Positions 1,746 through 34,442 of a stretch of DNA of 34,867 nucleotides are shown in pieces (the stretch's first letter is position 1; the number at the start of each line of letters is the position of its first letter). This stretch comes from a virus (taxonomy: Duplodnaviria > Heunggongvirae > Uroviricota > Caudoviricetes): IMG/VR virus record IMGVR_UViG_2684622580_000006; one strand, written 5' to 3'. The translations under genes were made by a program, and so were the position numbers. The notes under the pieces were generated by a model. That model was not told the origin of the DNA, made no database searches, and saw only the letters and a list, made by a program, of their open reading frames with translations.

Positions 1746-1790
1746 AATTGATACTCTCTGCTAAGTGATTGAAAGGATTAGATTATGCAA
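1715..1790. other. Candidate attL / host-prophage junction overlapping the 5' end of ybiT
   Basis: Abrupt GC-rich to AT-rich transition around 1720-1745; only 39 bp separate the ybiT start from the serine recombinase start; small palindrome ttgctaagaagcaa (1731-1744) and a second tgctaag at 1760-1766. Confidence 0.3.
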
Positions 1791-3290
1791 AAGCAAAACG
1801 GGTTAGCTTACTCATACATACGATTTTCGAGCAAGAAACAAGAACAAGGGGACTCAGTAAGACGACAGACTGAACTTGCTGAAAAATACGCTTCATCGAA
1901 CAATCTTACACTATCTGAAAAGAACTTTCAGGATCTGGGGATCTCAGCGTTCAAAGAAGGAAACAGACCTTCACTCGGTGACATGCTTTCTGCTATCGAG
2001 CAAGGAGCAATCGAATCAGGCAGCACGATAATCATCGAATCACTTGATCGCTTGAGTCGTCGGGGTATCGATGTGACTCAACAGATAATCAAGTCAATCT
2101 TACAACACAACGTCTTTATAGCGAGCCTGACAGACGGTCTGTTACTCAATAGAGAATCAGTTAACGACCTTGTAAGCGTGATTAGAATCGCTCTGGCTGC
2201 TGACCTTGCGCATAAAGAATCGGAGAAGAAATCACAGCGTTTGCGTGAGACAAAACAGCAACAAAGAAAAGCTGCTCTTGAGGGTAAAGTAATCAACAAA
2301 ATACTGCCTTTCTGGTTATCAAGAGAAAAAGACCAGTTTGTTTTCTCTGACAGATTTGACGCAGTGAAAAGAATTATCGAACTAAAGAAAAAGGGACTTG
2401 GGACAAATAAAATAGCTAAGACATTAAACGATGAAGGATTTAAACCATTGCGTTCTGCTGGCTGGAATCATACAACTGTTGGTAAAACTCTAAGTTCAGT
2501 TGCTTTATACGGTGCTTATCAAACATCAGAAACGACGAAAGATAGAAAAGTTATTCTGTTGGATATTATCGATAATTATTATCCAGCAGTAATTAGCAAA
2601 GAAGATTGGATGTTATTACAATCAGACGCAAAGCAGAATAAACCGGGGTATAAGTCAGACAAAAATGCTTTCACAGGGTTATTAAAGCACTCTTGCGGAG
2701 GTGCGTTAGTCAGAAAATTCCATGTTGTTACTGGTAAAACGTATCAATACCATGTTTGTGCTAATGCTCGCGATGGTAAATGCACCGTTACGCAGAATTT
2801 TAAAAACATGGAGATTGCTCTTTATAAAATCTTAAAGCACTTAAAGATGGAGAAGAAAACCTCTGTTGATGCGACAATTGCACAAGAACGCGCTCAATTA
2901 AAAGAGCAAATCGACAACTTGAACGGAATGCTTCTAACAATGAAAAAAGTTCCTATGAGTGTTCTTGAGACAATCGGCAATCTTGAGGAAAAGTTACAGG
3001 AACTCGACCAGCAGTTTAAACAACAATCTGATATGGTATTAGCTGAACAATCAGTCGATTTCAACCTCCTGTCGGAAATCAAAGATCCTATCGAATTAAA
3101 CATGATGCTTAAACGAGTTATAAAAGAAATCACGGTATTTAATCTTAAAAAATCTTGGCGAATAAAAGTTCAGTATCTGAATGGTCATTCTCAGAGTTTC
3201 CGATGGGATGGATATAGTATGAGTTTTGTTTCTGACAGCAAAAAACTACTGGAATACATGAACGCTGAGAAAGAGCAATTGGATAACTAA
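1785..3290 (+). CDS. Large serine recombinase (phage integrase, serine type)
   Basis: N-terminal resolvase-like catalytic domain with the serine motif AYSYIRFSSKKQ...RQ; Cys cluster HSCGG...YHVCANARDGKC (zinc ribbon) and C-terminal coiled coil typical of large serine integrases; sits at the element boundary. Confidence 0.85.
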   Translation: MQKQNGLAYSYIRFSSKKQEQGDSVRRQTELAEKYASSNNLTLSEKNFQDLGISAFKEGNRPSLGDMLSAIEQGAIESGSTIIIESLDRLSRRGIDVTQQIIKSILQHNVFIASLTDGLLLNRESVNDLVSVIRIALAADLAHKESEKKSQRLRETKQQQRKAALEGKVINKILPFWLSREKDQFVFSDRFDAVKRIIELKKKGLGTNKIAKTLNDEGFKPLRSAGWNHTTVGKTLSSVALYGAYQTSETTKDRKVILLDIIDNYYPAVISKEDWMLLQSDAKQNKPGYKSDKNAFTGLLKHSCGGALVRKFHVVTGKTYQYHVCANARDGKCTVTQNFKNMEIALYKILKHLKMEKKTSVDATIAQERAQLKEQIDNLNGMLLTMKKVPMSVLETIGNLEEKLQELDQQFKQQSDMVLAEQSVDFNLLSEIKDPIELNMMLKRVIKEITVFNLKKSWRIKVQYLNGHSQSFRWDGYSMSFVSDSKKLLEYMNAEKEQLDN

Positions 3291-4197: not shown

Positions 4198-4220
4198 AGG
4201 GAGTTGTTGCTCCCTTATTT
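4198..4220. terminator. Bidirectional intrinsic terminator between convergent genes
   Basis: agggag-ttgttg-ctccct hairpin followed by tatttt; lies between the stop at 4186 (+) and the stop at 4215 (-). Confidence 0.5.
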
Positions 4221-4862
4221 TACGCTCGTCCACTTAGATTCTGAGTTCCATTTACCGATTCGAGAAAAAAACGTATCTTGTTCATTTCCTTTATAACTAC
4301 GATGAACACCATCAGAAGCGTGATTTCTTGCCGATTTCTCAAGAACCTCCCAGATTGAGTTCATAACAGCTTCGGTTTCGTTTTTAGATTCATTATCATC
4401 GTATTCGATATTAACTGTTAATTTATCCATAGAACCAGTAAACAGATTAAAACTCTCTGTTAGACTGCCAGTATTCGGATTCAGAAAACAAATATCAATT
4501 TTAACGTCTGCTCTGTTCAAAGCTTTTGTTCGAATCAAGTTAATATATTCTTTTCGGATATTAGCCAGCTTAACGGTCATACCGATGTTGCTAATTTCTT
4601 TTTCTTCGCTGATTGAACTGATATCAGTAAAGTCACCAGCGGCAATATAATTTTTACCTTGATATTGCAAGTCGTAATAAGCATCAGTTAACAACAGTTC
4701 TGCGCCGTTATGCATCTTAATCTGAACAAGATGAAACAACGTGCCAACACTGAACAACTGACCAGTAGTCAGTTCAGTATAAGCAGTGCCGTTAAAATCG
4801 TTATACGCTTCGATGAAGTCGGGGTCTTTTCTCAGTCTGTTAAATTGGTCTTTTACTGACAT
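4215..4862 (-). CDS. Hypothetical protein (second gene of a minus-strand pair)
   Basis: 215 aa ORF; start overlaps the upstream gene stop by 1 nt (translational coupling); no motif I recognise. Confidence 0.6.
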   Translation of the reverse strand: MSVKDQFNRLRKDPDFIEAYNDFNGTAYTELTTGQLFSVGTLFHLVQIKMHNGAELLLTDAYYDLQYQGKNYIAAGDFTDISSISEEKEISNIGMTVKLANIRKEYINLIRTKALNRADVKIDICFLNPNTGSLTESFNLFTGSMDKLTVNIEYDDNESKNETEAVMNSIWEVLEKSARNHASDGVHRSYKGNEQDTFFSRIGKWNSESKWTSVK

Positions 4863-5437
4863 TACACCACCTCTGTTGCAGTGAGTTTAATATTTGAAAT
4901 TGATGCTAAGTCTAACGGGATAGTATCGTTCGTTAGGATGAATCGTCCTTTTGTTCCTCTGTAACTGACAGTTTCACCAGCTTGAACGTTCTGCAACAGA
5001 TTCGGAAATAGTTTCATCTCTCCACCTGCTTTGACATCCTCCGTCACGGTGTACAGCTTGGAGTGATTCTGAAACTGAACAAGTGCTCCCGCTTCTAAAG
5101 TATCTGCAAAGCTGTTCAGAGTGACCTTACGCGCTCCTTTGTTAGCTGTAACAGATGCTTGGATAAGTCCCTGAGCCGAGCCTTTATAGTCAGTCAAGTA
5201 GCTTAACGGAAAGTCAAACGGTTGACCTTGTTGATGCATCGCGATAAAGCGTTGAACGTGTCTTGTGTCCTGCGACATATAATTCACAGTGAAATTCAAT
5301 TCGAAATATTGAACGCCTGTATAACGTTTCTGAAAACGTCCTGATACTGCTCTGTTAGAGAAAAACGGAGCATTTGATTTAAGCTGAACATCGGTCAGCC
5401 TAACGTCTGTGTCTAATAGATTCATAAGTCCTCTCAT
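4862..5437 (-). CDS. Hypothetical protein (first gene of a minus-strand pair; start may be the internal Met at 5425)
   Basis: 191 aa ORF; AGAGGA precedes the ATG of MNLLDTD at 5425, whereas the ATG at 5437 has no SD. Confidence 0.6.
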   Translation of the reverse strand: MRGLMNLLDTDVRLTDVQLKSNAPFFSNRAVSGRFQKRYTGVQYFELNFTVNYMSQDTRHVQRFIAMHQQGQPFDFPLSYLTDYKGSAQGLIQASVTANKGARKVTLNSFADTLEAGALVQFQNHSKLYTVTEDVKAGGEMKLFPNLLQNVQAGETVSYRGTKGRFILTNDTIPLDLASISNIKLTATEVV

Positions 5438-12426: not shown

Positions 12427-13041
12427 ATGTACAAAAGAACTATCAACAACGTAACTTACAAAACCCGTTCTGAACTGGATACTGAGCCAACCGGATTCAG
12501 CGTTTATAAAACCGTTTTCAGTATCAACAATGAATCATTCGTTTATTACGGCAAACAAGCTTTCAACGGTCAGCCTGATATGTCGTATATCGGTTCTGGT
12601 CGCAGAGTTCAGGAAAAACTCGCTGAAATGACCGAGTCAGATATCGTTTATAAAATCGTTCTACAGAATTTTGAATCAGAACAAGAAGCGTATGACTTCG
12701 AATCTGAATGCATTCAATCAGCACGCAAATCGAAGGTTAATATTTTAAATATATCTAAAGGAAACTCCGGTGGTAAGGTCTTTGACAAAATGACAGAAGA
12801 ACAAATTAAACAACGTAACGCGAAAATCTCTATGAGCATGATGGGTCACGAAGTCTCTGATGAAACTCGTCGTAAAATCTCAGAAGCGAAATCTGGTCAG
12901 ACTCGCTCTGATAATACGAAACAAAAAATCGGTGATGCTCTGCACGGTCGCAAAACTGGACCTAAATCAGAAGAAACCAAACGCAGAATGTCAGAAGCAC
13001 ATAAAGCACGTCACGCTAACAAGGAGACAGCGAATGTCTAA
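12427..13041 (+). CDS. GIY-YIG homing endonuclease with NUMOD3-like repeats (Seg / I-TevI-like)
   Basis: 204 aa; N-terminal GFSVYK...FVYYGKQ...YIGSGRR (GIY-YIG spacing) and C-terminal repeats HEVSDETRRKISEAKSG / SEETKRRMSEAHK typical of NUMOD3. Confidence 0.75.
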   Translation: MYKRTINNVTYKTRSELDTEPTGFSVYKTVFSINNESFVYYGKQAFNGQPDMSYIGSGRRVQEKLAEMTESDIVYKIVLQNFESEQEAYDFESECIQSARKSKVNILNISKGNSGGKVFDKMTEEQIKQRNAKISMSMMGHEVSDETRRKISEAKSGQTRSDNTKQKIGDALHGRKTGPKSEETKRRMSEAHKARHANKETANV

Positions 13042-18053: not shown

Positions 18054-20030
18054 ATGCTAAAACTAAAACGCGATTTCGAAGCCCAAGAAATTAAAATTAC
18101 TGATGATAGTTATGAAATTGCGTTCTCAAGTGAAACTCCTGTTGAACGTCAAATTCTCGATAGTTACGGTCAACCAATAACAGTTAATGAAATTCTTTTG
18201 CATGACGGTCCTCAAAATGCTGACCTCGAGCGAATCAATAACGGCGCTGCTCTGTTGTTTAACCATAATTTCGACAATCATCTAGGCGTTGTAATTCCCG
18301 GGTCTGTAAGAATCGATAATGACCGTAAAGGTCGCGCTGTTGTTAAATTCAGTAAAGTTGGTCAATTAGCTAACGAAATTAAATCAAAAATCGACGAAGG
18401 AACAATTTCTAAAATTTCTTTCGGCTACGACATTATTGAATATGAACTCAAAGGAGACGACTTGTTAGTTTCTCGTTGGAGTCCGTATGAAATTTCTTTC
18501 GTTACTGTTCCTGCTGACGACAAAGTTGGCTTGGGAAGACTTCTAAATACAGATGACAAAACAATTAACGTTGAAGGAAAAAGAATGAATTTTGGTGAAA
18601 TCACTCTCGAAGAACTTCAAACACTTTCTCGCGAACAACTTGCGGAAATGAATGTTGAAGAAATTGAAGCGATGCCAGAAGAACTTCGTTTGAAGCGTGA
18701 AGAACTATTAGCGGAAGAAGCTGATATTCAGGATATCAAAGAAGAAGTTCAAGAAGCATCCGAAGAACAGACTGTTCCAGAAAAACAGGAACAAGAAGTA
18801 CAGAAAACCGAAGCTGAAATTGAGGCTGAAAAAGCTGCTGAAATGGAAGCGCTAAATAAAGAAAAAGAACGAGTTGAAGAAATCGAAGATATTTCGGTTC
18901 GATACAAAGTTCCTTACGAAAAAACGAAATCTGCTATTGAAGACAAAATGTCTGTTTCTGATTTCAAACGCTCTATTAAACCTAATAACGCTCCTACGGT
19001 GGTAAGAAAAATGACTAAAGATACTCAAATTGAACTTGAAAACAAATTTAATCTGGCTAACGCAATGCGCGCAATTGCTGACGGTAAAGCACTGACTGGT
19101 GCAGAAGCTGAATATACTCAAGAAATGATTTCTAAACGTCAGAAAGCTGGTCGCGGTATCGTTTCTAACGGTCTGTATCTGCCTCTGTCAGTTCTGAAAG
19201 GCAAACGCGCTATTAACACTGTCCCGACTGTTTCCGCGATTCAGCAAGTTGAACAGCGTTATGACAGCTTTGTTGAAATGCTGCTTGCTCCGACTGTTCT
19301 AGGTCGTATGGGTGTTAACTTCCTGACTGGTCTGAATACTCCGATTTCTGTGCCTAAGCAAACTGCTAGTTCTGTTGATGCTTTCGGTTTCGTTGATGAA
19401 AACGGTGCTTCTCCAGAAGGCGAAAGCAAATTTGCTAACGTTCAGTTCATGCCGAAAACATTTACTGGTGGTAACCCGATTTCTCGTCAAGCGATGCTGA
19501 CTATGCCGAATCTTGAACAGTTTATTTCTGATCATATCGTTAAGCACTCACGCGCTAAACTGGAAGCTCTGATTCTGGGTTCTGCAACTGACGCTAAAGC
19601 TCCTGAATCTCTGGACGCTCAATTGACCGCTACTTCTATGGGCATGACCTATAAAGAATTCGTTAAAGCTGCTGCTAAAGCGAAAGGTAAAGGCGTTGAC
19701 ATGGACAAGTTCATGTATCTGATGGATGCCGAAACTGAAGGTGATCTGAAAACCACTCTGCGTGACGCTGGTGTTGCAGGTTACATCGTAGGTGAAGACA
19801 ACAAACTGGGTGGACACGAAGTTGTTGGTTCCGGTCTGGTTAAAGATGGCACTATCTTTGCTGGTGATTTCTCTGCTCTGACTGTTGCTGAGTGGGAAGG
19901 TATCGGTATTGATATCGACGACACAACTTATCGTAACGCAGGCGCTATCGTTCCTCGTGTTTGGGCTGACATCGACTGGAAAGTTACTGCTGACGACCGT
20001 CTGTTTAAATACGTAAAAACGGGAGCTTAA
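18054..20030 (+). CDS. Fused prohead protease - scaffold (coiled coil) - HK97-fold major capsid protein
   Basis: N-terminus carries U35/HK97-protease-like motifs (NHNFDNHLG; ISFGYD; YEISFVTVPAD); a central acidic coiled coil (about residues 190-290); the C-terminal 350 aa look like an HK97-type capsid protein. Confidence 0.75.
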   Translation: MLKLKRDFEAQEIKITDDSYEIAFSSETPVERQILDSYGQPITVNEILLHDGPQNADLERINNGAALLFNHNFDNHLGVVIPGSVRIDNDRKGRAVVKFSKVGQLANEIKSKIDEGTISKISFGYDIIEYELKGDDLLVSRWSPYEISFVTVPADDKVGLGRLLNTDDKTINVEGKRMNFGEITLEELQTLSREQLAEMNVEEIEAMPEELRLKREELLAEEADIQDIKEEVQEASEEQTVPEKQEQEVQKTEAEIEAEKAAEMEALNKEKERVEEIEDISVRYKVPYEKTKSAIEDKMSVSDFKRSIKPNNAPTVVRKMTKDTQIELENKFNLANAMRAIADGKALTGAEAEYTQEMISKRQKAGRGIVSNGLYLPLSVLKGKRAINTVPTVSAIQQVEQRYDSFVEMLLAPTVLGRMGVNFLTGLNTPISVPKQTASSVDAFGFVDENGASPEGESKFANVQFMPKTFTGGNPISRQAMLTMPNLEQFISDHIVKHSRAKLEALILGSATDAKAPESLDAQLTATSMGMTYKEFVKAAAKAKGKGVDMDKFMYLMDAETEGDLKTTLRDAGVAGYIVGEDNKLGGHEVVGSGLVKDGTIFAGDFSALTVAEWEGIGIDIDDTTYRNAGAIVPRVWADIDWKVTADDRLFKYVKTGA

Positions 20031-21897: not shown

Positions 21898-24729
21898 ATG
21901 GCAAATAACAAAGTTAAACATTATAGAACAGACGTCGCCGGAAGAAAGCCAGAAGCAAAAAACATGCTTGATGGTGAAATCGCTATTAACTTAGCCGATC
22001 GAAAGATTTTCACTAAATTCGGTGACGCTGTTATTAACATCGGTAATGGTGCCGACGCTGTTGTTGAAGGTAGTCAGACCTTTACTGGCAAAATTAAAGC
22101 AAGTGATATTGAATCCGATTCGAATCTGACTTTAAAAAATCTTGATAAAAGCGATATTGTTTTTGCTGATGAACACGGTAAAGCAAAAGCACGTATTAGT
22201 TCTCCTGCTCAGACAGACTCTAAAGGTGAACTTCGTGTTACGGTAGCGAAAGGAAAAGCTACAGGAGAGAGTTCTGACTTCGTGCTTAACGGTAATGGTC
22301 AGTTATCTTTGCCTGCTGCTCCTGTTGCTCCTGATAGCGCTACGCGTAAAGATTACGTTGATTCTGAAATCAGCAAAGTTCAAACAGGTTCAAGTGCTGA
22401 CCTGACGAAACTCGAACAGAAAGTTGATGCTAACGACGCTGCTATTAACACTCGCGTTGATAATCTGAATTCAAAAGTTGACCAGAACGACACGGCTATT
22501 AATACGAAAGTTGATGCGAATAAAGCTGATGCTGACGAAAAGATTAAAGCAGTTAATGACCGTTTGACTGTTGATAATCAGACTCTGAAAGACATGATTG
22601 ACACCAAAGTTAATAAAGCTGGCGACACGATGACTGGCGACTTAACTGTTCCTAAGTTAAATGCTACTGACATTAGAACCACAAAGATGCTCGTTACAAC
22701 TAATCCTGTTGAAGCTAACGCTCTTGGTGATAACTCTATTGCTATGGGTGATGGTGATACAGGTCTGAAATGGCAATCTGATGGCAAATTGCAATCATGG
22801 TCGAATAATATTCCTGTAACAGAACTTGATAAGTCTGAAATCAAATTTAATAGAAACGCAACCTTTCGTTTCAGAAGCGATAACGGTGAAATTGACTTGA
22901 TGACTCCTGATGGTATGAGTCTTGTTAAAATTGATACTACGAAAGACGGTAATAACACTGGCGATTCTATCAGTTATCTGGGACTTGTTAACTCAGGAAA
23001 ATATAATCACTATCTGAGAGGCACAGGCAGAACTTATATTGATACTCACGAAGGTCTCGGTGTTGCTGGTCCTACAAGTTTCTATCAGACTATTTTTAAC
23101 AACAAAGGACACGGAAGCTACGATAGTGAATCATTGCCTATTTGGACTGATGCTGGATTTCAGACAAATCATCTTCGTAAACTTAGAGCTAGAGACGCCG
23201 CTACAATTTTTCATGAAGCTGTTGTTGGTGATCATGAAGATCCTAGAGCTAGACAATCGATAAGTTGGTGGCATGGCAATGGTCCTGAAACTTTCATTGC
23301 CTCGATGCAACAGGATGGAACAATTAACGCATATCGTTTTAATACGTCGGCTGAATATGAAGCGATTAATCTAAAAACGAAAAATCGCGAAGCTGCATAT
23401 ATTAGAGGCACAGACGGTGACAAAACCTCATGGTTATTTGGTCGTTTGAATCCCGGTGATAACAGGTTAATTGCTCGTTCTACTATCGACCAAGACGGAA
23501 GTTCTACTGTTGACTTGGAGTTGGATTCAGGAAGCAAATACTTCGGTGTTAATGTTGGTGGGAATAGAATTGCAAGATTTCATGAAAAGAATATTATTAT
23601 CGACGGAAGAAAATGGGCTGCAGACAATAGTCACGCGTGGGCAGACCAATGGAATCAACTTCCTCCTGTTGCTATAGAATTTGGTGCTGTTCCTGCTGCG
23701 AGTGATTATTATCCTGGTTATGCGTTACAAAGTAGCTCTGTTGGTTTTGGTTATTCAACTCGATTCGAACTTGGTATGATTCGTGCTCCTGCTGATCAAT
23801 TCGGTAAAGGTATTCTTCGTGTAGGAACATATGAAGAAGGTGCGTCGAAGAGAATGGCGAATTACGAGTTTGATATTGACGGAAGATTCGCAGTTCCTGG
23901 TAAAATTAATACTCCTTACGTGGAAACCGATCGTTTAACAAGCTTTGGTGTTCATACTAATAACTTGCTTGGTGGAAACTCTATTGCTTTCGGTGACCAA
24001 GATACGGGTATTCGTCAAAGATTCGACGGAAACTTAGAGATTATTACAGATTCGCTTCATCTGGCTACGTTTAATCCTTCAGGCTTAACTATTAATGATC
24101 GTATGATTTCAGTTAACGCTCCCAATAATTCTCGCGGTATTTACGTTGGAAATGTGAGAACTGGTAATGCTAATGCGATGATTCAAGGTCAAGTCGATGG
24201 ATGGGCTGATTGGGGTGCATGGCGTGATCGTCCTGCGGGAATGACCGTTGAAGCTCCTACTCGTTCGAAATGTATTAATATCTGGAAACATGTTCACTGG
24301 GGCACTGAATGGGGCGCTGCGATGGACGTTTATAATCCCGACGGTGCAGGTCCTGAAGCCCAATTACACGTTGGTGGTGCAAACTATCATTTCAGCGGTA
24401 ACGGAACAGCAAACGCCATTTCTTGGGTTAGCACTTCTGATAAACGTCTGAAATCAAATTTTGAAGAAATTGAAAACGCGGTTGATAAAGTCGAGAAACT
24501 TACTGGTTACGTATACGATAAGAAATCTGATTTAGTCGAAACTGAATATTCATTCGAAGTTCGTGAAGCAGGTATTATCGCTCAAGAATTGCAAGAGGTT
24601 CTTCCAGAAGCTGTTAGTTCTTTCGGACCTGACAAAATTCTTGGTGTTAACTCTGCTGCTGTAAACGCGTTGTTGGTTAATGCTATCAAGGAATTAAGTG
24701 CTCGCGTTAAAGAACTTGAAGCTAAATAA
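21898..24729 (+). CDS. Tail fiber / tailspike with a C-terminal S74 intramolecular chaperone (self-cleaving) domain
   Basis: 943 aa; imperfect repeats VDANDAAINTRVDNLNSKVDQNDTAINTKVD and GDTMTGDLTV; C-terminus SWVSTSDKRLKSNFEEIENAVDKVEKLTGYVY...GIIAQELQEVLPEAVS...LLVNAIKELSARVKELEAK is the classic peptidase S74 chaperone signature. Confidence 0.8.
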   Translation: MANNKVKHYRTDVAGRKPEAKNMLDGEIAINLADRKIFTKFGDAVINIGNGADAVVEGSQTFTGKIKASDIESDSNLTLKNLDKSDIVFADEHGKAKARISSPAQTDSKGELRVTVAKGKATGESSDFVLNGNGQLSLPAAPVAPDSATRKDYVDSEISKVQTGSSADLTKLEQKVDANDAAINTRVDNLNSKVDQNDTAINTKVDANKADADEKIKAVNDRLTVDNQTLKDMIDTKVNKAGDTMTGDLTVPKLNATDIRTTKMLVTTNPVEANALGDNSIAMGDGDTGLKWQSDGKLQSWSNNIPVTELDKSEIKFNRNATFRFRSDNGEIDLMTPDGMSLVKIDTTKDGNNTGDSISYLGLVNSGKYNHYLRGTGRTYIDTHEGLGVAGPTSFYQTIFNNKGHGSYDSESLPIWTDAGFQTNHLRKLRARDAATIFHEAVVGDHEDPRARQSISWWHGNGPETFIASMQQDGTINAYRFNTSAEYEAINLKTKNREAAYIRGTDGDKTSWLFGRLNPGDNRLIARSTIDQDGSSTVDLELDSGSKYFGVNVGGNRIARFHEKNIIIDGRKWAADNSHAWADQWNQLPPVAIEFGAVPAASDYYPGYALQSSSVGFGYSTRFELGMIRAPADQFGKGILRVGTYEEGASKRMANYEFDIDGRFAVPGKINTPYVETDRLTSFGVHTNNLLGGNSIAFGDQDTGIRQRFDGNLEIITDSLHLATFNPSGLTINDRMISVNAPNNSRGIYVGNVRTGNANAMIQGQVDGWADWGAWRDRPAGMTVEAPTRSKCINIWKHVHWGTEWGAAMDVYNPDGAGPEAQLHVGGANYHFSGNGTANAISWVSTSDKRLKSNFEEIENAVDKVEKLTGYVYDKKSDLVETEYSFEVREAGIIAQELQEVLPEAVSSFGPDKILGVNSAAVNALLVNAIKELSARVKELEAK

Positions 24730-25338: not shown

Positions 25339-25755
25339 ATGTTTAAATTTCAAGCTGACTTATCAAAATTACTGAATCGATATATCAACAAAGAACATCA
25401 ATTCGGTCAAAACGACTGTAATATCCTTGTTGCTGAATATATCGACCTTGTTTGTGTTACTGAATACACAGACAAATTAAAAGACAAATATACGAGTATT
25501 CCTGAAGGTCTCAAGATTTGCAAAAAACTCACTGGTTTTAACAACGTTCTCGAAGCTTGTGAAAATCATCTTGAGAAATCAGAAAAGATAGAAACTGGCT
25601 CGGTTATCTTAATTAAGAAAAAACATAAAAACCGTGTCTATTACGTTGCGTCCATCGTTTTCAATAATCAAGCATTAGTTGAACACGAAAACAAATACAA
25701 ACTAGTGAACGTCAACGATTTTAACTTTGAATTAATTTTTAACAGGAGAAAATAA
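25339..25755 (+). CDS. Hypothetical protein (138 aa), translationally coupled to the gpJ-like gene
   Basis: Stop overlaps the next ATG (TAATG). Confidence 0.55.
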
Positions 25756-28700
25756 TGGCCATTGCTGCTATTGGTGCAATTATTGCGGGTGCTTCCGCTG
25801 CTGCTGCTGCATATGCCGCTGGTGCTGCAATTGCTGTTGCTATCGGTATTGGTGTTGCTGTTGCTGCTGTTTCGGGATTAATGTCCTATTCGATGAAAGA
25901 ATCTGTTCCTCGATTTAATAGCGCAGACACTGCAACGACATTAGGAACAACGTCTGACCCTGCAAGCGTAATTCCTATTATCTACGGCGAACAACGCACA
26001 GGGACAATTAACGTTTGGAAAGCTGTTGGTGTCGATACGACTTATCTGGTGCAAGTCTTTGCAATCTGTGAAGGAGAAGTTGATAGCTTCAAAAACCTGT
26101 ATATGGATAATCAGAAAATCTTACTTGATGGAACTTACAGAGATGGAATTTTAGATAAAGGCTCTATCGCTGCCGAATATCAGAATTTCGTTGAAATTGA
26201 ATTCTCAACTGGTAAACCATACGGTCACGTTTTCACGCTTGCTCAAAAATATCTGGGTAATGATGTTGCTGGTTGGCCTGATTCTGCAACTGGTAATGGT
26301 ATCGCTTCTGTGTGTGTTGTTATGCGCAAACGTAACACAGACTTAGAAAACCAAGCTGATATTCTGCAACCTAACAGTCAAGTAGCTGTTGACGTTAGAG
26401 GACGTTTGATTACAGACCTGAACACAGGAGGCATCGTCCCTTCAAACAATGGTCCTAGTCAAGCAGTCGATTATCTGACGAACGAACGTTACGGTCTGGG
26501 TATTCCACTTGATAAAATCAATCTTGATAGTTTCAAGCAATGTGCAGAACACGCAAAACTGAACAGTCTGTTTTCTAACGGTGCAACTGACCCGAATGGT
26601 TCATTCAAAGAAAACTTAACTCAGATTGCAGGTGCTTTTAACGGTATTATCACTGAATCTTTCGGACTGGTTACTTGCGTTATCGATGGTCCTGGTGTTG
26701 TTCAATATGATTTCAACGAAGATAATATTAATGCTGGAACTGTTAGCTTGAATGATGGCGGAACAGAGAATTACTACAATACTCTGAACGTGAAATATCA
26801 AGATCCTGAAATCGATTATTCTGACCAAGTTCTTCGTTATCCGTCTGACGTAACAAATGATGGAACTATCGCGAAAGACAAACGTATTATCGCAAAAGAT
26901 ATCAGTTACAGATTCGTTAAAGGAAAAGACCAGTTAGACAAAATTGCTTCAATCGAACGAAGCAAATCACTGTTACAACAGGTTATTAGTTTTTCTTCTA
27001 CTGATGCTTATACCGTACAAGTATGGGATATTATCAGAGTTAATTTCGAAGAACTGGAACTGACTGATTCATTATGGCGAGTAACTAACGTTGATCGCAC
27101 GATGGAAAAAGGTGCTGCTGGTATCGTTACTATTACCGCTGCTGAATATATCGAAGAAGTTTATACCGATCTTGACTACGCGAAAGACCCGGATAACTCA
27201 GGAAGTAACATTCCAAACAAAGCTGTTCTTATTCCACCGAAGAATCTGACAGTTAAAGCAGTTGCTGAAACAGCACTCGGAAGAACTTTGAAAGTGCAAT
27301 GGACGTCTGAACCTGATTATAACCGCGCAGGTTATTATATTCAGTATAGTCTTGCTGGCAAGAACTCCTGGACTCAAGCAGGTTTCACATCAGGCGATTA
27401 TTTCTTGATTATGAGTCTTGATCCTAATCAGAAATTTGATATTCGTGTTTGTGCTTCTGGTGTTGTGTATCGTTCAGATTGGGTATATGTGAATAACGTT
27501 AACCCTGATGTTACGTATAACTTACCAAGCGTCACAGGATTACGCCTAGTGAACGCGGTTGAAAATCAGTACACCACTAACAAGACTCAATTTGAATTCG
27601 CTTGGGACGACCAGAGCGCACAGAAATTCTATGTTGACGACACGTTACAGACATTCGGTGAAGTTTTTCAATATTACGAAATTAAACTCGAAGGTCAACG
27701 TCCTGTAATTTGCAAGACTAAAGATTTAGGTTTTGTATATGACTTTAATATGAACTTGGGTAATGGTCTGAGTCGTGAACTGAAAGTTTCTGTTACTGCA
27801 TACGGTCACGCTGGTATGAAATCAGATCCGAGTATTATTACTGTTAAGAACAATCAAGCTCCTGCGATTCAAGGTTTCACAGCTTCTAATGGTCCTGGAA
27901 TGCTGATGTGTTCATGGAATGACCCACGCGATAATATTCCTGAAGTTCCTGACTTCAAAGGCACAATCGTTCATATTGCGAAAGACCAAAGCTTTAATGA
28001 AATTGTCCACGTTTATTCAAGCTCAAGTCCGTTTTTAGACAACTTCCCGTTAGAAGATGGTCAATTCTATGTTCGTGCAGCATGGTATGACGTTTTCGGA
28101 CAAGACCAGATTACTTGGTCACAGGCGACTTATATCGATATGAAATGGGATATTCCATGGAACGACGATATGAAAGACCAGTTGGAAGACTTGTTAGATC
28201 TGAACAACCGAGTTGATGGTGCTATCGATGAAGCGTTGAAACTTGCTAAGGAATATACTGACACCGAGGTTATTGCTTCTGAACAAAAAGTTGTTACCGA
28301 ACTGAATCAGACAATCACAACGAAAAACACCGAACTGTATACACAAATTACAGATGAAACGAATGGCGCTATTAATCAGGCTATTACGATTCAAGAGGCG
28401 AATTTCGATGGAAAACTGAATTCAGCAATCACTAAAGTTGAAAAAACTCAAGCTGATGATAGAGAGGCAACTGCAAGTTCTATTAGCCAACTGAAAGCTG
28501 AAACTGACTCGGCAATTGCAAGTGTTTCAACAGAAGCAAAAGCAAGCGTTGACGAACTGACAGGAACTATTAACAGCAAATGGGCAGTTCAGACTAATGC
28601 CGACGGTGTTGTTGCTGGTATCAGTATGCTCGCTAATAAAAATGCTGACGGTTCGAAATCATCAAGCATTATTTTCAACGCTGATAAAATCGCTATTACG

Positions 28701-29444
28701 AATAACAACACTCCTGAAGGTGCTGTTCCTCCGTTCATGGTTGCAGATAATAAGACTTATCTTCAAGATGCTATGATTCGCGATGCTTCAATCGGTAATG
28801 CGAAAATTGGTTATGCTGCTATTGATACAGCGAAGATTCAAGACGCTGCTATTAACAACGCTAAAATTCAAGATGGTGCTATTACATCAGCGAAGATCGG
28901 TAATGCTCAGATCGGTAATGCTCAGATTGCTTATGAAATATCGTCTGATAACTGGTTCCCTTCCGGTGGTACTCAAGGTTGGACAATCAGAAAAGACGGT
29001 TGGGCTTCTTTCCAAAACGTTAATATCAGAGGTAACATTCAAGCAGATTCTGGTTATTTCGCAGGTGAAATCAGAGGCGGTTCAGGTTATTTCACAGGAA
29101 CTGTATACGCTGACAGAATTGAAGGTGACGTTATCAAAATGGGTCATATAGATCCGTGGACAACAGTTCATATTCCTGCTGTTAACTGGAACAGAGTAAT
29201 TGCTATTCCAAACCTTGCGATTTCAGGCAGAACTTATTCTGGTGGCGCTTGGGGCTACGGAACTGCATGGATTAATATGACGAACGGTCAAGAAATCGTA
29301 AGAACAGTTACCAGTGCAATGAGTGGTTCAAACGGTGGTACGGCTATTATCTATGCGGGACAAGCTGTTGATTTGAGTTACGGTGCTGACTTGAATCATG
29401 CGACCGCAGCAAGAGCAGTTTACTTTATCAGTAAACAACAATAA
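25755..29444 (+). CDS. Host-specificity / central tail fiber protein (lambda gpJ-like) with an unusual hydrophobic N-terminal segment
   Basis: 1229 aa; [23 protein letters not shown] resembles gpJ ISEGPIEGPVDGLKSVLLNSTPVLD; FN3-like block ([13 protein letters not shown]...); [13 protein letters not shown]...[10 protein letters not shown] resembles gpJ GIGLSMEDTEEGK...FVAQGNQIF; first 45 residues are Ala/Gly/Ile-rich. Confidence 0.6.
28783..28932 (+). repeat. Tandem hexapeptide-coding repeats inside the gpJ-like gene
   Basis: Encodes [52 protein letters not shown]; the nucleotide repeat atcggtaatgctcag is directly duplicated. Confidence 0.6.
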
Positions 29445-29488: not shown

Positions 29489-29773
29489 ATGGTCGATATG
29501 GCACTGATCATTTCCATCTTGGGTGCTCTAGGAGGTTTCTTGGCTTGGGTTTATGCCGAAATTAAATCAAACAATGAAAAACGACTTGACCTTGAGAAAC
29601 GTTTCTCAGACATCGAAAAAAGCATTGCCGTTAATGACGCAAAAGATGCTTCGCTTATAAGCGATATAACCAGACAACAGGATGAATTTCGAGAGGTCAA
29701 ATCTGATTTGAAGAATTTAGAAGGAAGGACATCAAAGCTAGACATCGACCTAGCAGTTCTAAGAGGAAAATGA
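29489..29773 (+). CDS. Membrane-anchored coiled-coil protein (holin / i-spanin-like topology)
   Basis: 94 aa; N-terminal transmembrane helix MALIISILGALGGFLAWVYA followed by a charged coiled coil; AAGGAG SD. Confidence 0.5.
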   Translation: MVDMALIISILGALGGFLAWVYAEIKSNNEKRLDLEKRFSDIEKSIAVNDAKDASLISDITRQQDEFREVKSDLKNLEGRTSKLDIDLAVLRGK

Positions 29774-30246
29774 AAAGAAAAGAGATTCCGATTTATAAGC
29801 AAGAACTCTTTCAAAAGCAAAAAGGTCTTTGTGCGTTAACAGGCATAAAGATTCACGAAGTTAATAAAGCCCATCTTGACCATGACCATATTTTAACAGG
29901 CTCTAACGCAGGCAGATGCAGAGGATTATTAATCGCTCAAGCAAACGTCCTCGAGGGTAGAATAAAACATCAGTTTAAACGTTCAGGTCTCGATGGGAAA
30001 ATTGACTACATCGAGTTTTTAAAGAATCTTGTTCAGTATCTTGAAAAAGACTACTCAGACAATCCTACGCATCCACAACTTATTCCCGATTTAAAGAAAG
30101 CGTTCTCTCGAAAAAATCTTTCTGAGATGAAAGCTATTACAGGTTCAAACCTTAAAACGAAAAAGGAGCTTGAAAAAGTCTACTCAAACCAAATAAAGGT
30201 GAAATATGAAAATGAAATATCTCCAAGCAATGGCAAAACACGCTAA
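29770..30246 (+). CDS. Endonuclease VII (T4 gp49-like Holliday junction resolvase) homolog
   Basis: 158 aa; HLDHDHILTGSNAGRCRGLL...EGRIKHQFKRSGLDGKIDYIEFLKNLVQYLEKDYSDNPTHP aligns closely to T4 Endo VII HLDHDHELNGPKAGKVRGLL...EGQMKHKFNRSGLKGQGVDYLEWLENLLTYLKSDY. Confidence 0.85.
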   Translation: MKRKEIPIYKQELFQKQKGLCALTGIKIHEVNKAHLDHDHILTGSNAGRCRGLLIAQANVLEGRIKHQFKRSGLDGKIDYIEFLKNLVQYLEKDYSDNPTHPQLIPDLKKAFSRKNLSEMKAITGSNLKTKKELEKVYSNQIKVKYENEISPSNGKTR

Positions 30247-31687: not shown

Positions 31688-32050
31688 ATGTTACGTCGCG
31701 GATTATCTAACGAAGAAATTCAACAGATGTCCGTAATGATGTATTATGAATTATGGTTTTTCGATTCGTTTATTGAACCACAAAGTCCTGTCTATAACGA
31801 TTTCTATCAAGCTCGATTGATTCACACTATCGAAGCAAATAACCCGAATCTGACCAAAGAGTACAGGAAAAAGTTGAACATGAAAGACCATCAGCTTATT
31901 AAAGATTCTGTGTTTAAGTCTCAAGAAGAAATCGAAAAAGAGAAAGAACAACAGGAGATTAAACGTAAGAAAGCTATTGAATCGATGTTCGACCCAGCTC
32001 TGTTAGATAAAGTTAAACTGAGAAAAACAAAAAAGGTGAATAATGGCTAA
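31688..32050 (+). CDS. Tail assembly chaperone C-terminal extension (gpT-like), probably expressed as a G-T fusion
   Basis: 120 aa ORF in the -1 frame relative to the chaperone ORF; no ribosome-binding site upstream of its ATG; overlaps the tape measure start by 8 nt. Confidence 0.5.
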   Translation: MLRRGLSNEEIQQMSVMMYYELWFFDSFIEPQSPVYNDFYQARLIHTIEANNPNLTKEYRKKLNMKDHQLIKDSVFKSQEEIEKEKEQQEIKRKKAIESMFDPALLDKVKLRKTKKVNNG

Positions 32051-34442
32051 ATCACGTTATGACGTTGAGATTAACGGAGATAACAAAGGCCTTTCAAAAT
32101 CTATTGATAAGTCTATGGAGCAACTGAACGAACTTGATTCGGTTGCTAATGGACTTTTTAGTAATATGACAGGACCGTTGAATAATCTCAACAGTGGAAT
32201 ATCAGGTATTGCAGGAATGTCCTCGGGTATGCAAGCTCTGGGGATTGCAGGAATGGCAGCAGGTGTAGGTGTCGCCGCTCTTAATACCGCTTTAGAAAAA
32301 ACAAGAGAACTTAATCAGATCTCTACGTCAACTGGACTTTCAGTTGAATATCTGCAACAGCTTCAAAAAGAATTTCGCACTACAGGAATGGAAATTGACC
32401 GATTCGGGGATCTTAACAAAGATACTCTCGACCATCTCGGTGATTCATTCAGAGAAGGCGCAGGTGGTATTGGTGATGACCTTGAAAAATGGGGTATTGG
32501 TCTTGAGCGATACACTCAATATGTTAACGACGCTGAAGGCGGTATTAAAGCACTTGTTCAGACGTATTATGACCTGAAAAAAGCTGGTGCAAGTCAAGCT
32601 GAAATCGTTAACGGAATGGAGTCTATGGCTTCTGACGGTTCTCACTTGATTACTGTTCTTGAAAAATACGGCTCAACTCAAGAAGCATTAAACGCTATCA
32701 ATAACCAATCAGCTAGTATTACAAACGAAACAGCAAGAGAATACCAAGGATTCGATGAAAACATGAAAACGCTTTCGGTGAACTTGGATAATTTAACTGT
32801 TAACGTTATGGGTCCTCTCGTTTCGAAAATGAATAATCTTTATGATATTGCGAATAAAGATTGGACAGCTAGTAATATCCTCGATTTCTTTACTAAGATT
32901 GATAGCTTACGTCCTGATAAGATGTTAGCAGATTGGGCGGCTGACACAGTTGTTGATGCTTACGCAGACGCTAATCCTACTTCTGGCGCAGGTCAACGTA
33001 AACAGCAAAAAGATTATCTTGATACGACAGAACGTTTTCTGAAACAGACCAAAGCTCAAGGCGATAAAGCTTATGAAAAACGTAAGCAAGACGAAATAAC
33101 ACGAGCGAAGTTACAGAAACAGCGTAATGAGAAAGCCGCTGAGGATGCGAAAAAAGAAGCTGATAAAGCTAAACGCGAAGCTGACAGAATAGCAAGAGAG
33201 CAAGAACGCGCTGGGAAAGAAAAGCTACGCTTACAGGAGCAAGCCGCAAGAGAATCTAAAGCTGCTTACGATAAGATGATGCAAGAAAGGGAGACAGCGT
33301 TACAGAGTCTTTCCAGTCTTGATGCTGCAATTCTGAGTCAAGAAGGTCGCACGATTTCAAATCAGGTTAGTCAAGTTCAACAGGCTATTAAAACTATCTC
33401 AGAACTTGAGAAAAAAGGAATTATCTCCGCTGAACAGGCTAAGCAACGTCGAAACATGCTGTTTAAAACATCTAATGCAGAATTTAAACAGACTCTTATG
33501 ACGAGTCCTGAAGAAATTGGAGCAATCACGACAAGTCTTGAAGTTGTATATCAGCAACAGCTTGAACAACTCGAAGCGAAGAAAGCCCAGTCGTTAATCA
33601 GTCAGCAAGAATACAACACACAGGTTGAAGCATTACAGCAAGACCATCAGTCACGTCTTGAAGCTATTAAAGCAACGAGCGGTGACGGTAATATGGCTAA
33701 TATGAAAAATCTCAGTGCGTTGGGTTTTGCAACTGACGAAGAACAGATGGCTATTCAACAAGCCGCGTTAGATGAACAATTTCAGAAAATGCGTGAACAG
33801 AACCAGAAATTATATGATGGTCAGTTAATCAATCACGAGCAATTCCTGCAACAGAAAGCACGTCTTGACCAAGCGTATGCCGCGAAGTCGAAACAAATTA
33901 CTTTCTTGGAAACTCAGACGAAACTCCAGATGTATAACGGGTTGGCTTCTGGTATGGGTTCAATAATCGCTGGTATCGCAGGTGAAAGTTCGGACGCTGC
34001 TCAAGCTGTATTTGCTATTCAGAAAGGAACAGCAATCGCAAGCGGTATGTTAAACGCTTATGAATCCGCGACTGCTGCAATGGCTAAATATCCTGGTCCT
34101 ATGGGTTACGCTATGGCTGCTTCAAGCTATGCGCGTGTTATCGGACAAGTCTTGCAGATGAAATCAGTGAATATTACTGGTATGGCTCACGATGGTATTT
34201 CAGAAGTGCCAAGAGAAGGGACATGGTTGCTTGATGGTGGCGAACGTGTTGTTGATGAACGCACTAACGGCGACTTAAAAGAATTCTTAGACAATAACAA
34301 AATAGGAGAAGCAACAAAAATCGATGCAAGTATTCACGTAAATGGAAATGTTACTGATCAGCGTTGGTTTGCTGAACAATTAAAACGTCAGCAACAGAAC
34401 ATCGCGGCTATTGTGCAAGACTGCAACAGACGCAAGATGTAA
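32043..34442 (+). CDS. Tail tape measure protein
   Basis: 799 aa, alpha-helical; Gly/Ala-rich hydrophobic segments (GIAGMSSGMQALGIAGMAAGVGVAAL; GLASGMGSIIAGIAG); long charged coiled coil (KAAEDAKKEADKAKREADRIAREQERAGKEK); follows the G/GT pair. Confidence 0.75.
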   Translation: MAKSRYDVEINGDNKGLSKSIDKSMEQLNELDSVANGLFSNMTGPLNNLNSGISGIAGMSSGMQALGIAGMAAGVGVAALNTALEKTRELNQISTSTGLSVEYLQQLQKEFRTTGMEIDRFGDLNKDTLDHLGDSFREGAGGIGDDLEKWGIGLERYTQYVNDAEGGIKALVQTYYDLKKAGASQAEIVNGMESMASDGSHLITVLEKYGSTQEALNAINNQSASITNETAREYQGFDENMKTLSVNLDNLTVNVMGPLVSKMNNLYDIANKDWTASNILDFFTKIDSLRPDKMLADWAADTVVDAYADANPTSGAGQRKQQKDYLDTTERFLKQTKAQGDKAYEKRKQDEITRAKLQKQRNEKAAEDAKKEADKAKREADRIAREQERAGKEKLRLQEQAARESKAAYDKMMQERETALQSLSSLDAAILSQEGRTISNQVSQVQQAIKTISELEKKGIISAEQAKQRRNMLFKTSNAEFKQTLMTSPEEIGAITTSLEVVYQQQLEQLEAKKAQSLISQQEYNTQVEALQQDHQSRLEAIKATSGDGNMANMKNLSALGFATDEEQMAIQQAALDEQFQKMREQNQKLYDGQLINHEQFLQQKARLDQAYAAKSKQITFLETQTKLQMYNGLASGMGSIIAGIAGESSDAAQAVFAIQKGTAIASGMLNAYESATAAMAKYPGPMGYAMAASSYARVIGQVLQMKSVNITGMAHDGISEVPREGTWLLDGGERVVDERTNGDLKEFLDNNKIGEATKIDASIHVNGNVTDQRWFAEQLKRQQQNIAAIVQDCNRRKM

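Follow-up and report, generated by a model that had tools for sequence, protein, structure and literature searches.

The DNA examined here (the window, 34,867 nucleotides; IMG/VR virus record IMGVR_UViG_2684622580_000006, Caudoviricetes) covers nearly an entire Escherichia coli prophage inserted beside ldtB/ybiR. This prophage is found in 7 of 5426 complete E. coli genomes. A single open reading frame (ORF) at positions 25755-29444 of the plus strand encodes a 1229-residue protein that resembles the tail tip protein gpJ of phage lambda, and that is labelled 'phage tail tip fiber protein' by the Prokaryotic Genome Annotation Pipeline (PGAP) in those E. coli genomes. The identical sequence of this J-like protein is present on 77 contigs, and the cluster that it forms at 90% identity has 66 members from E. 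coli and Citrobacter. Its first ~95 residues likely represent the C-terminal half of a second lambda tail tip protein, gpI, fused to a hub and fibre of the gpJ/pb3 type.

The genes around the J-like gene follow the order major tail protein (24791), DUF6950 protein (25339), J-like protein (25755), endonuclease VII, minor tail protein, chaperones and tape measure (32043-34442). An in-frame TAA at 25740-25742 makes ATG 25755 the earliest possible in-frame start of the J-like gene. This start codon shares one nucleotide with the TAA of the preceding DUF6950 gene (TAATG), and the DUF6950 gene is translationally coupled to the J-like gene. The coordinates of the features discussed in the following paragraphs are collected in Table 1.

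Table 1. Positions in the window of the J-like gene, its parts and its presumed partner genes (AF2, AlphaFold2; pLDDT, predicted local distance difference test).
Feature	Position	Strand	Basis or remark
DUF6950 protein, 138 residues, at the position of lambda gene K	25339..25755	+	Pfam PF22262, E 8e-11, residues 4-126
Strong Shine-Dalgarno sequence AGGAG	25744..25748	+	6 nucleotides 5' of ATG 25755
Whole J-like gene, likely a gpI-C::gpJ-type fusion (tip plug, baseplate hub and central fibre)	25755..29444	+	1229 residues
Uncharged Ala/Gly/Ile/Val-rich segment, residues 1-47, putative counterpart of lambda gpI H1/H2	25755..25895	+	Composition, hydropathy, family profile
Residues 48-95, putative counterpart of the gpI 'plug' (gpI 159-175) and beta-strand VLPVLYGEMRVG	25896..26039	+	BLASTP, hhalign, profile
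Baseplate hub domains (HD) HDII, its insertion, HDIII and HDIV, residues about 96-480	26040..27194	+	AF2 (pLDDT mostly 80-94), Foldseek
FN3-type domains, residues about 490-800	27222..28154	+	AF2 strands, Foldseek
One long helix, residues 804-933, presumed trimeric coiled-coil shaft	28164..28553	+	AF2 C-terminal model, relative positions 15-144
Eleven AxIxx pentads paired into decapeptides, residues 1006-1060, preceded by a weaker twelfth (from 1001)	28770..28935	+	Tandem Repeats Finder, repeat search, periodicity
Variable C-terminal domain, residues 1128-1229, presumed receptor binding	29136..29441	+	Identity comparison, cluster variants
gpL-like tail protein	4215..4862	-	Partner of the hub, ~20 kb off on the opposite strand
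Distal tail protein	4862..5437	-	Partner of the hub, ~20 kb off on the opposite strand
Tape measure protein	32043..34442	+	PHROG 13674, E 2e-72

Profile searches assign the J-like protein to PHROG 31 ('central tail fiber J', E 4.6e-59) and to the Pfam family Phage_Tail_Tip (PF09327, E 2.1e-24, above the curated cut-off). Its AF2 model is confident from residue 71 onward, and Foldseek aligns this model with tail tip structures at E values of 1e-17 to 1e-31, including T5/DT57C pb3 (1e-30 to 1e-31), lambda gpJ (1e-21) and the tail tips of T1, JBD30 and Chi. Sequence identity to gpJ is very low. Predicted strands at residues 496-582 match titin and other FN3 domains with template modelling scores of 0.7-0.8, and the homologue P0129 carries PF00041. 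On this evidence the J-like protein is a hub and central fibre of the lambda-J/T5-pb3 type, and both the gpJ-like character and the FN3-like domain that an earlier note on this DNA had recognized are borne out. As in lambda gpJ, FN3 domains come next after the hub, then a helical shaft and, at the C-terminus, a presumed binding domain. The predicted helix, which is 130 residues long, fits the coiled-coil shaft of lambda or F-pyocin fibres, and an F2-pyocin fibre matches residues about 900-1022 (E 1.5e-4), AxIxx pentads included. The fold-switch motif SxSxxMxxLxS published for F-pyocin fibres is not enriched in the J-like protein, where it is seen 3 times vs 1.7 expected (499 of 2000 shuffled sequences reach 3).

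Residues 1-47 lack charged residues altogether and include 20 Ala, 7 Ile, 6 Gly and 4 Val. The 19-residue Kyte-Doolittle mean peaks at 2.38 in this segment, which is the sole stretch of the protein above 1.6. Every relative, even at about 30% identity, has the segment from its very first residue. The Ala/Gly-rich hydrophobic N-terminus described in the earlier note is therefore confirmed. Besides the relatives L003-L005 (89% identical), L007 and L008 (~60%) and the protein of Escherichia phage DCP80, the database proteins P0001-P0006 and P0127-P0129 have the same segment, down to 31% identity. Conservation within it is position-specific, with G7, G12, G33 and several Ala residues invariant, and it is conserved no less than the remainder of the protein. 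Codons 1-47 differ from those of L003 by 15 synonymous and 6 amino-acid changes, and from those of L007 by 23 and 12, respectively. The segment is under purifying selection. Conservation from residue 1, together with the excess of synonymous changes, shows that it is translated and that it reflects neither chance nor an annotation artefact.

Structure prediction for this region, as had been proposed in the earlier note, gives helices at residues 17-31 and 36-45, but the pLDDT is below 50 across residues 1-70. Residues 1-47 probably form two helices, as modelled. The underlying DNA is of low complexity at 25831-25866, where a TTGCTG hexanucleotide is repeated six times with an 80% match, and 14 of the 20 Ala codons of the hydrophobic segment are GCT. 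Despite this composition, the length of the segment varies among relatives only by single-residue insertions or deletions.

Lambda gpI is made up of a ubiquitin-like (Ubl) N-terminal domain, a Gly/Ala-rich hydrophobic stretch and a C-terminal part ending ...VLPVLYGEMRVGSRVVSQ. Several comparisons link the N-terminus of the J-like protein to the latter two. BLASTP aligns residues 48-84 with gpI 158-200 (E 8e-5). Alignment of the J-like family to the gpI family by hhalign equates residues 25-91 with gpI 137-207 at a probability of 95.3%, and a probability of 92.7% is obtained when the hydrophobic part is omitted and only residues 48-100 are used. A hidden Markov model (HMM) built from 21 sequences of the J-like family matches more than 120 gpI-family proteins (E 5e-10 to 1e-5), and its profile positions 5-97 correspond collinearly to gpI residues about 105-204. 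With a profile of residues 48-95 alone, 121 gpI-family proteins are matched at E values down to 5e-9, compared to 0.56 for the best decoy. The set searched with the family HMM consisted of 120 gpI-family proteins and, as decoys, 319 six-frame segments of the window, none of which gave a match better than E 0.5, other than J itself.

Judged from these alignments, residues ~5-97 are homologous to, and collinear with, the C-terminal half of lambda gpI. The profile and hhalign comparisons identify the TAPI-C module, which consists of the plug and the strand motif LPV(L/V)YG..R.G, in the J-like N-terminus. Gly/Ala-rich hydrophobic helices directly precede the plug, and the collinear alignment extends through them to gpI residue ~105. 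The J-like protein and gpI (whose other names are TAPI, THIP, tip plug and 'insertion protein') have in common a probable pair of hydrophobic helices, then a plug, then a beta-strand (VLPVLYGEMRVG in gpI), and the two modules occupy an equivalent genomic place at the K-J junction. The hydrophobic part is 47 residues long in the J-like protein and about 58 in gpI. The earlier note had regarded such a segment as unexpected in a tail tip protein; it corresponds instead to a known tip-plug module, which is fused to J and has no gene I of its own.

Two of four gpI features, namely the hydrophobic helices and TAPI-C, are therefore found in the J-like protein, whereas the Ubl domain and a separate polypeptide are not. 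The Ubl family PF06805 matches lambda gpI at residues 14-97 and does not match the J-like protein, and a Ubl HMM detects no ubiquitin-like sequence in the six frames of the window. There is no separate I gene between the K-position gene and J, as the stop codon of the former overlaps the start codon of the latter. Lambda gpI and gpJ are two polypeptides, while here there is one. Searches of the N-terminus with Pfam and NCBIfam gave no useful match, and Pfam is blind to the C-terminal half of gpI because PF06805 models only the Ubl domain.

The strand of the J-like protein that corresponds to gpI VLPVLYGEMRVG runs on into hub domain II. Residues 69-118 align to residues 260-310 of T5 pb3, which, together with the confident fold from residue 71 onward, indicates that this strand is the first of hub domain II and is covalently joined to it. 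Lambda gpI supplies the counterpart of the strand in trans, by beta-sheet augmentation (PMC10721106).

The structures of related tail tips indicate how such a module might function. From residue 101 onward, gpI is built of two helices, H1 and H2, which are predicted to be transmembrane, followed by the plug (159-175) and by beta-strands that run through the gpJ hub (PMC11101478). The protein augments a beta-sheet of gpJ and forms a tripod under the C-terminus of gpH (PMC10721106). The plug closes the lumen beneath the gpH C-terminal coil and loosens after LamB binding, upon which H1 and H2 exit towards the membrane (PMC11101478, PMC10721106, PMC12617516). The gpI homologue of F-pyocins likewise has two hydrophobic helices (PMC12874032), and its N-terminal helices encircle the C-terminus of the tape measure (10.64898/2026.02.24.707460). 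T5 has its plug within pb3, where it refolds into membrane-anchoring hairpins (PMC10038345).

By analogy with these lambda, T5 and F-pyocin structures, from which plug placement, release and the membrane step are taken, we consider it likely that the first ~95 residues of the J-like protein form a lumen plug that is released when the tip opens. In the closed tail-tip cone, three N-termini would pack round the C-terminus of the tape measure, which is the expected partner of the plug from the lambda and F-pyocin structures, and would block the channel. Binding of the C-terminal domain to its receptor would then open the hub and free the plug. The hydrophobic helices, covalently tethered to the hub throughout, would reach the outer membrane and probably enter it, and the tape measure and the DNA would then exit. 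The suggestion in the earlier note that the segment is a membrane-insertion element matches what has been proposed for the helices of gpI and of F-pyocins (PMC11101478, PMC12874032).

A number of observations weigh against this reading. The gpI link carries small-database statistics at ~30 bits. An HMM made only from close relatives of lambda gpI (at least 70% identical) missed the J-like N-terminus, and the link surfaced only with the broader query-family profile and hhalign. A 95-position profile searched against 1.84 billion representatives found the fused family and no gpI proteins; ~30 bits is not significant against 1.8 billion sequences. The DUF6950 protein can be called 'gpK-like' by its position only. 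It shows no similarity to lambda gpK by BLASTP and none to any PDB chain. The lumen placement and the membrane insertion of the plug are both drawn from analogy, with an AF2 pLDDT that is low over residues 1-70, and membrane insertion is unproven even for lambda gpI. Finally, the prophage may be partly decayed, as insertion sequence (IS) elements lie in J or capsid genes of relatives and the tail module is split.

There are several other explanations for the hydrophobic segment. The gpI-homologous module could act purely as an assembly element or plug, with helices that pack round the tape-measure C-terminus and never enter a membrane. This would agree with the F-pyocin plug, whose N-terminal helices surround the tape-measure C-terminus (10.64898/2026.02.24.707460), with the invariant G7, G12, G33 and Ala positions, as expected for helix packing, and with the published work on gpI, in which no study demonstrates membrane insertion (PMC11101478, PMC12617516). 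However, the open lambda structure shows the helices outside the cone and pointing at the membrane, and they are predicted to be transmembrane (PMC11101478). The 19-residue Kyte-Doolittle mean of 2.38 also falls within the range of transmembrane segments. We regard a plug that stays out of the membrane as unlikely.

Two further explanations would remove the segment from the tip altogether. It could be a Sec or signal recognition particle (SRP) signal, or an inner-membrane anchor, that directs J into the membrane or the periplasm of the cell making it and is perhaps cleaved, as might be supposed from its N-terminal location and strong hydrophobicity. A Sec signal peptide has a positively charged n-region, a hydrophobic core of 7-15 residues and a cleavage site. 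The J-like segment lacks a positively charged n-region, having no charged residue at all, and its hydrophobic run of ~45-47 residues is far longer than a signal-peptide core. It is also homologous to an internal part of a cytoplasmic virion protein, and the assembly of tail tips in the cytoplasm likewise counts against export, making this explanation highly improbable. Alternatively, the start codon could be mis-called, as the earlier note allowed, such that translation begins at one of the in-frame Met codons at residues 43 and 47 and the hydrophobic stretch is never made. An AGGAG sequence is suitably placed before ATG 25755, which is the first in-frame ATG, and none precedes Met43 or Met47. 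The TAATG overlap likewise involves ATG 25755, and in-frame conservation with an excess of synonymous changes extends from residue 1 among relatives at 30-89% identity. The annotated start is thus sound, the chance of a downstream start is negligible, and both a wrong start and an untranslated segment are ruled out for practical purposes by these sequence comparisons.

A likely gpI-J fusion of this kind has partial parallels in known systems. The best structural match, T5/DT57C pb3, also carries the plug and the first strand of hub domain II on the hub chain (PMC10038345, PMC10721106). However, pb3 includes hub domain I, the equivalent of gpL, whereas the prophage encodes its gpL-like protein separately. 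The pb3 plug refolds to a beta-hairpin, while that of the J-like protein is predicted to be a hydrophobic helical pair, and pb3 stops after two FN3 domains and has no fibre (PMC10038345). In F-type pyocins, the tip plug (PA0640 / THIP) caps the tape measure and is predicted to contain two hydrophobic helices, and the fibre is a long coiled coil that leads into a beta-prism (PMC12874032; 10.64898/2026.02.24.707460). The pyocin makes plug and fibre as two proteins, which are joined here.

In 2006, Iyer, Burroughs and Aravind described TAPI-TAPJ fusions in some prophages, as well as versions of K that have only an NlpC/P60 domain and lack JAB (PMC1779556). Those fusions were defined by the Ubl domain, which is absent from the J-like protein, where the hydrophobic segment forms the extreme N-terminus. 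The K-position partner also differs from that of lambda, as it has no JAB/MPN domain; the DUF6950 match spans all but the ends of the protein and leaves no room for one. As a likely fused counterpart of gpI, the N-terminal feature is explicable and only mildly unusual. In the literature searched, no description was found of a Ubl-less form with an N-terminal hydrophobic hairpin and a DUF6950 partner.

The exhaustive profile search of the 1.84 billion representatives yielded 17 matches at E <= 1e-3, two of which are spurious repeat proteins. The remaining matches cover residues 1 to about 95 and are mostly to J-like proteins of 1148-2324 residues. By this profile, the Ubl-less fused form is rare, with about 15 clusters at 50% identity. 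Word-indexed homologue searches, in which low-complexity words dominated, returned only 6-10 proteins, most of them truncated. Among isolated phages, the closest record is that of DCP80, with a protein at 43.5% identity over 88% of the query; of 50,697 such records, it is the only one to cover most of the J-like protein. A megablast search against isolated phages gave no match. The DCP80 genes are arranged in the canonical lambda order V-G-T-H-M-L-K(DUF6950)-J without gene I, and Vibrio phage henriette 12B8 has the order H-M-L-DUF6950-J, likewise without gene I. The pairing of DUF6950 and J therefore recurs in both phages.

Both records have features of their own. The 141-kb DCP80 record (L001, PQ671644.1) is classed under the T4-like genus Gaprivervirus and contains motA and ndd. 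Besides these it has a lambda-like siphovirus structural module related to the prophage (L001 6410-15636), and its assembly may be a chimera in which a T4-like phage is joined to an induced prophage. Henriette 12B8 is an isolated lytic Vibrio phage in which the DUF6950-J pair lies at L010 5532-9606. The N-terminus of its J protein has one hydrophobic helix of ~22 residues, which is followed by DVVYGR. Consequently, the plug-J fusion exists in one-helix and two-helix forms.

Several J or capsid genes of this prophage group are interrupted. An IS3-family element splits J in L008 (11221-12426), an IS5-like ISEc68 lies within J of strain 2021CK-01361 (NZ_CP107720.1), and another IS3-family element is present in the capsid gene of strain 2017.06.05CC (L009 12817-14045). 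These insertions explain at least two truncated 'J' proteins in the databases and suggest that some copies of the prophage are in decay. The J gene is intact in E. coli L3Cip3 (CP062211) and MS 115-1 (CP146665).

The fusion touches on two general questions, namely whether gpI-type hydrophobic helices enter the outer membrane and what purpose the gpI Ubl domain and gpK serve. A natural single chain without Ubl and JAB peptidase implies that the plug module can exist without either, and it argues that plug helices can work while fixed to the hub. A stronger version of this idea, which we offer tentatively and consider rather unlikely, is that a membrane-active hairpin is permanently and covalently tethered to the hub and is made without a Ubl domain or a JAB-containing K protein. 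If this is true and the prophage is functional, the Ubl/JAB processing step of lambda would be dispensable. The plug helices would do their work without leaving the hub, perhaps as an outer-membrane anchor or pore of six helices at the tail mouth. The hydrophobic N-terminus would also have to avoid the inner membrane of the producing cell, perhaps with the coupled DUF6950 protein as a chaperone. The single gene offers a simpler genetic handle, since N-terminal edits of one gene bear on both plug and membrane function. For annotation, the fusion explains recurrent calls of a "TM helix at the start of a tail fibre" (TM, transmembrane), which are neither signal peptides nor start errors.

Near the C-terminus, the earlier note had described tandem hexapeptide repeats. 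Repeats are indeed present, but their period is 5 and 10 residues. Tandem Repeats Finder reports a period of 30 nucleotides with 2.8 copies (74% match), and also an exact 15-nucleotide unit present in 2.3 copies at 28894-28927. A separate repeat search finds five copies at 30-nucleotide spacing within 28770-28935, and the hydrophobic periodicity power is 2.63 at period 5 vs 0.05 at period 6. A hexapeptide repeat of the left-handed beta-helix type was rejected on account of these 15- and 30-nucleotide periods and the lack of period-6 power. Pfam gives no Pentapeptide (A[D/N]LXX) match for the repeats at E <= 0.01, and in the PDB the similarity to solenoids designed from pentapeptide repeats is weak (E 0.005-0.07). 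AF2 monomer models are uninformative for the pentads. A few such pentads occur at the equivalent place in T1-like gp24 (PDB 23gd) and the F2-pyocin fibre. The AxIxx pentads are a fixed structural repeat of the central fibre and probably form beta-prism strands after the coiled coil.

The number of pentads is the same in close relatives. Eleven are found in the window, L003, L005, DCP80 (about 43% identical), P0132 and P0136, and all 11 full-length members of the cluster at 90% or higher identity keep identical pentads, including the exact decapeptide duplication. The seven complete E. coli genomes align over J at constant length, save for one IS insertion. Copy number differs only between homologues below about 50% identity, some of which have 7 or 13 pentads, with gaps that are multiples of 10 residues. 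These alignments indicate that the decapeptide is a structural unit that changes only over long evolutionary times. The repeats might instead be thought of as a slippage-prone contingency locus that alters fibre length or host range, considering the exact 15-nucleotide tandem unit and the counts of 7, 11 and 13 that differ by 10-residue steps in distant homologues. This is very improbable, as copy number does not change among the full-length cluster members, the 89% relatives and DCP80, which was the comparison that the earlier note had proposed, and variation in J is concentrated at residues 1149-1219. Its suggestion of a repeat-expansion hotspot affecting host range is accordingly not upheld among close relatives.

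Residues 1128-1229 are unrelated in L007 and DCP80, at only 11-18% identity, compared to 35-74% elsewhere in the protein. In relatives further removed, the final 100 residues have been exchanged. Similarly, in the 1230-residue cluster variants P0150 and P0161, 23 of 26 and 23 of 31 differences, respectively, fall within residues 1149-1219. Between window positions 28941-29441 and L003 13088-13588 (codons 1063-1229), 159 of 167 codons are the same, whereas 18-48% of codons differ in the remainder of the gene. Such near-identity amid a divergent gene points to the presumed receptor-binding end having been exchanged recently between the window and L003 lineages, with a junction where the pentad repeats end. 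From these comparisons, the presumed site of host-range variation is the C-terminal domain and not the repeats, which moves the host-range determinant of this prophage group to residues about 1128-1229.

The remaining observations concern the rest of the prophage. Its tail module is split, with the distal tail and gpL-like genes adjoining the gene for a large serine recombinase (1785-3290). DUF6950 and J directly follow the major tail protein, and the right end of the prophage, beyond J, holds the chaperones and the tape measure. The order V-K-J is repeated in L003-L005 and L007/L008. The endonuclease VII gene (29770-30246) lies within the tail block, a placement kept in all relatives, and a NUMOD3/homing-endonuclease-like gene is present at 12427-13041, 5' of the terminase. 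At 18054-20030, one ORF of 658 residues joins the prohead protease and the major capsid protein (PHROG 617 / 4523 / 80). The ORF at 21898-24729 encodes a 943-residue side tail fibre with a C-terminal S74 intramolecular chaperone domain, and this fibre is strongly mosaic among relatives, with 26-78% identity over partial coverage.

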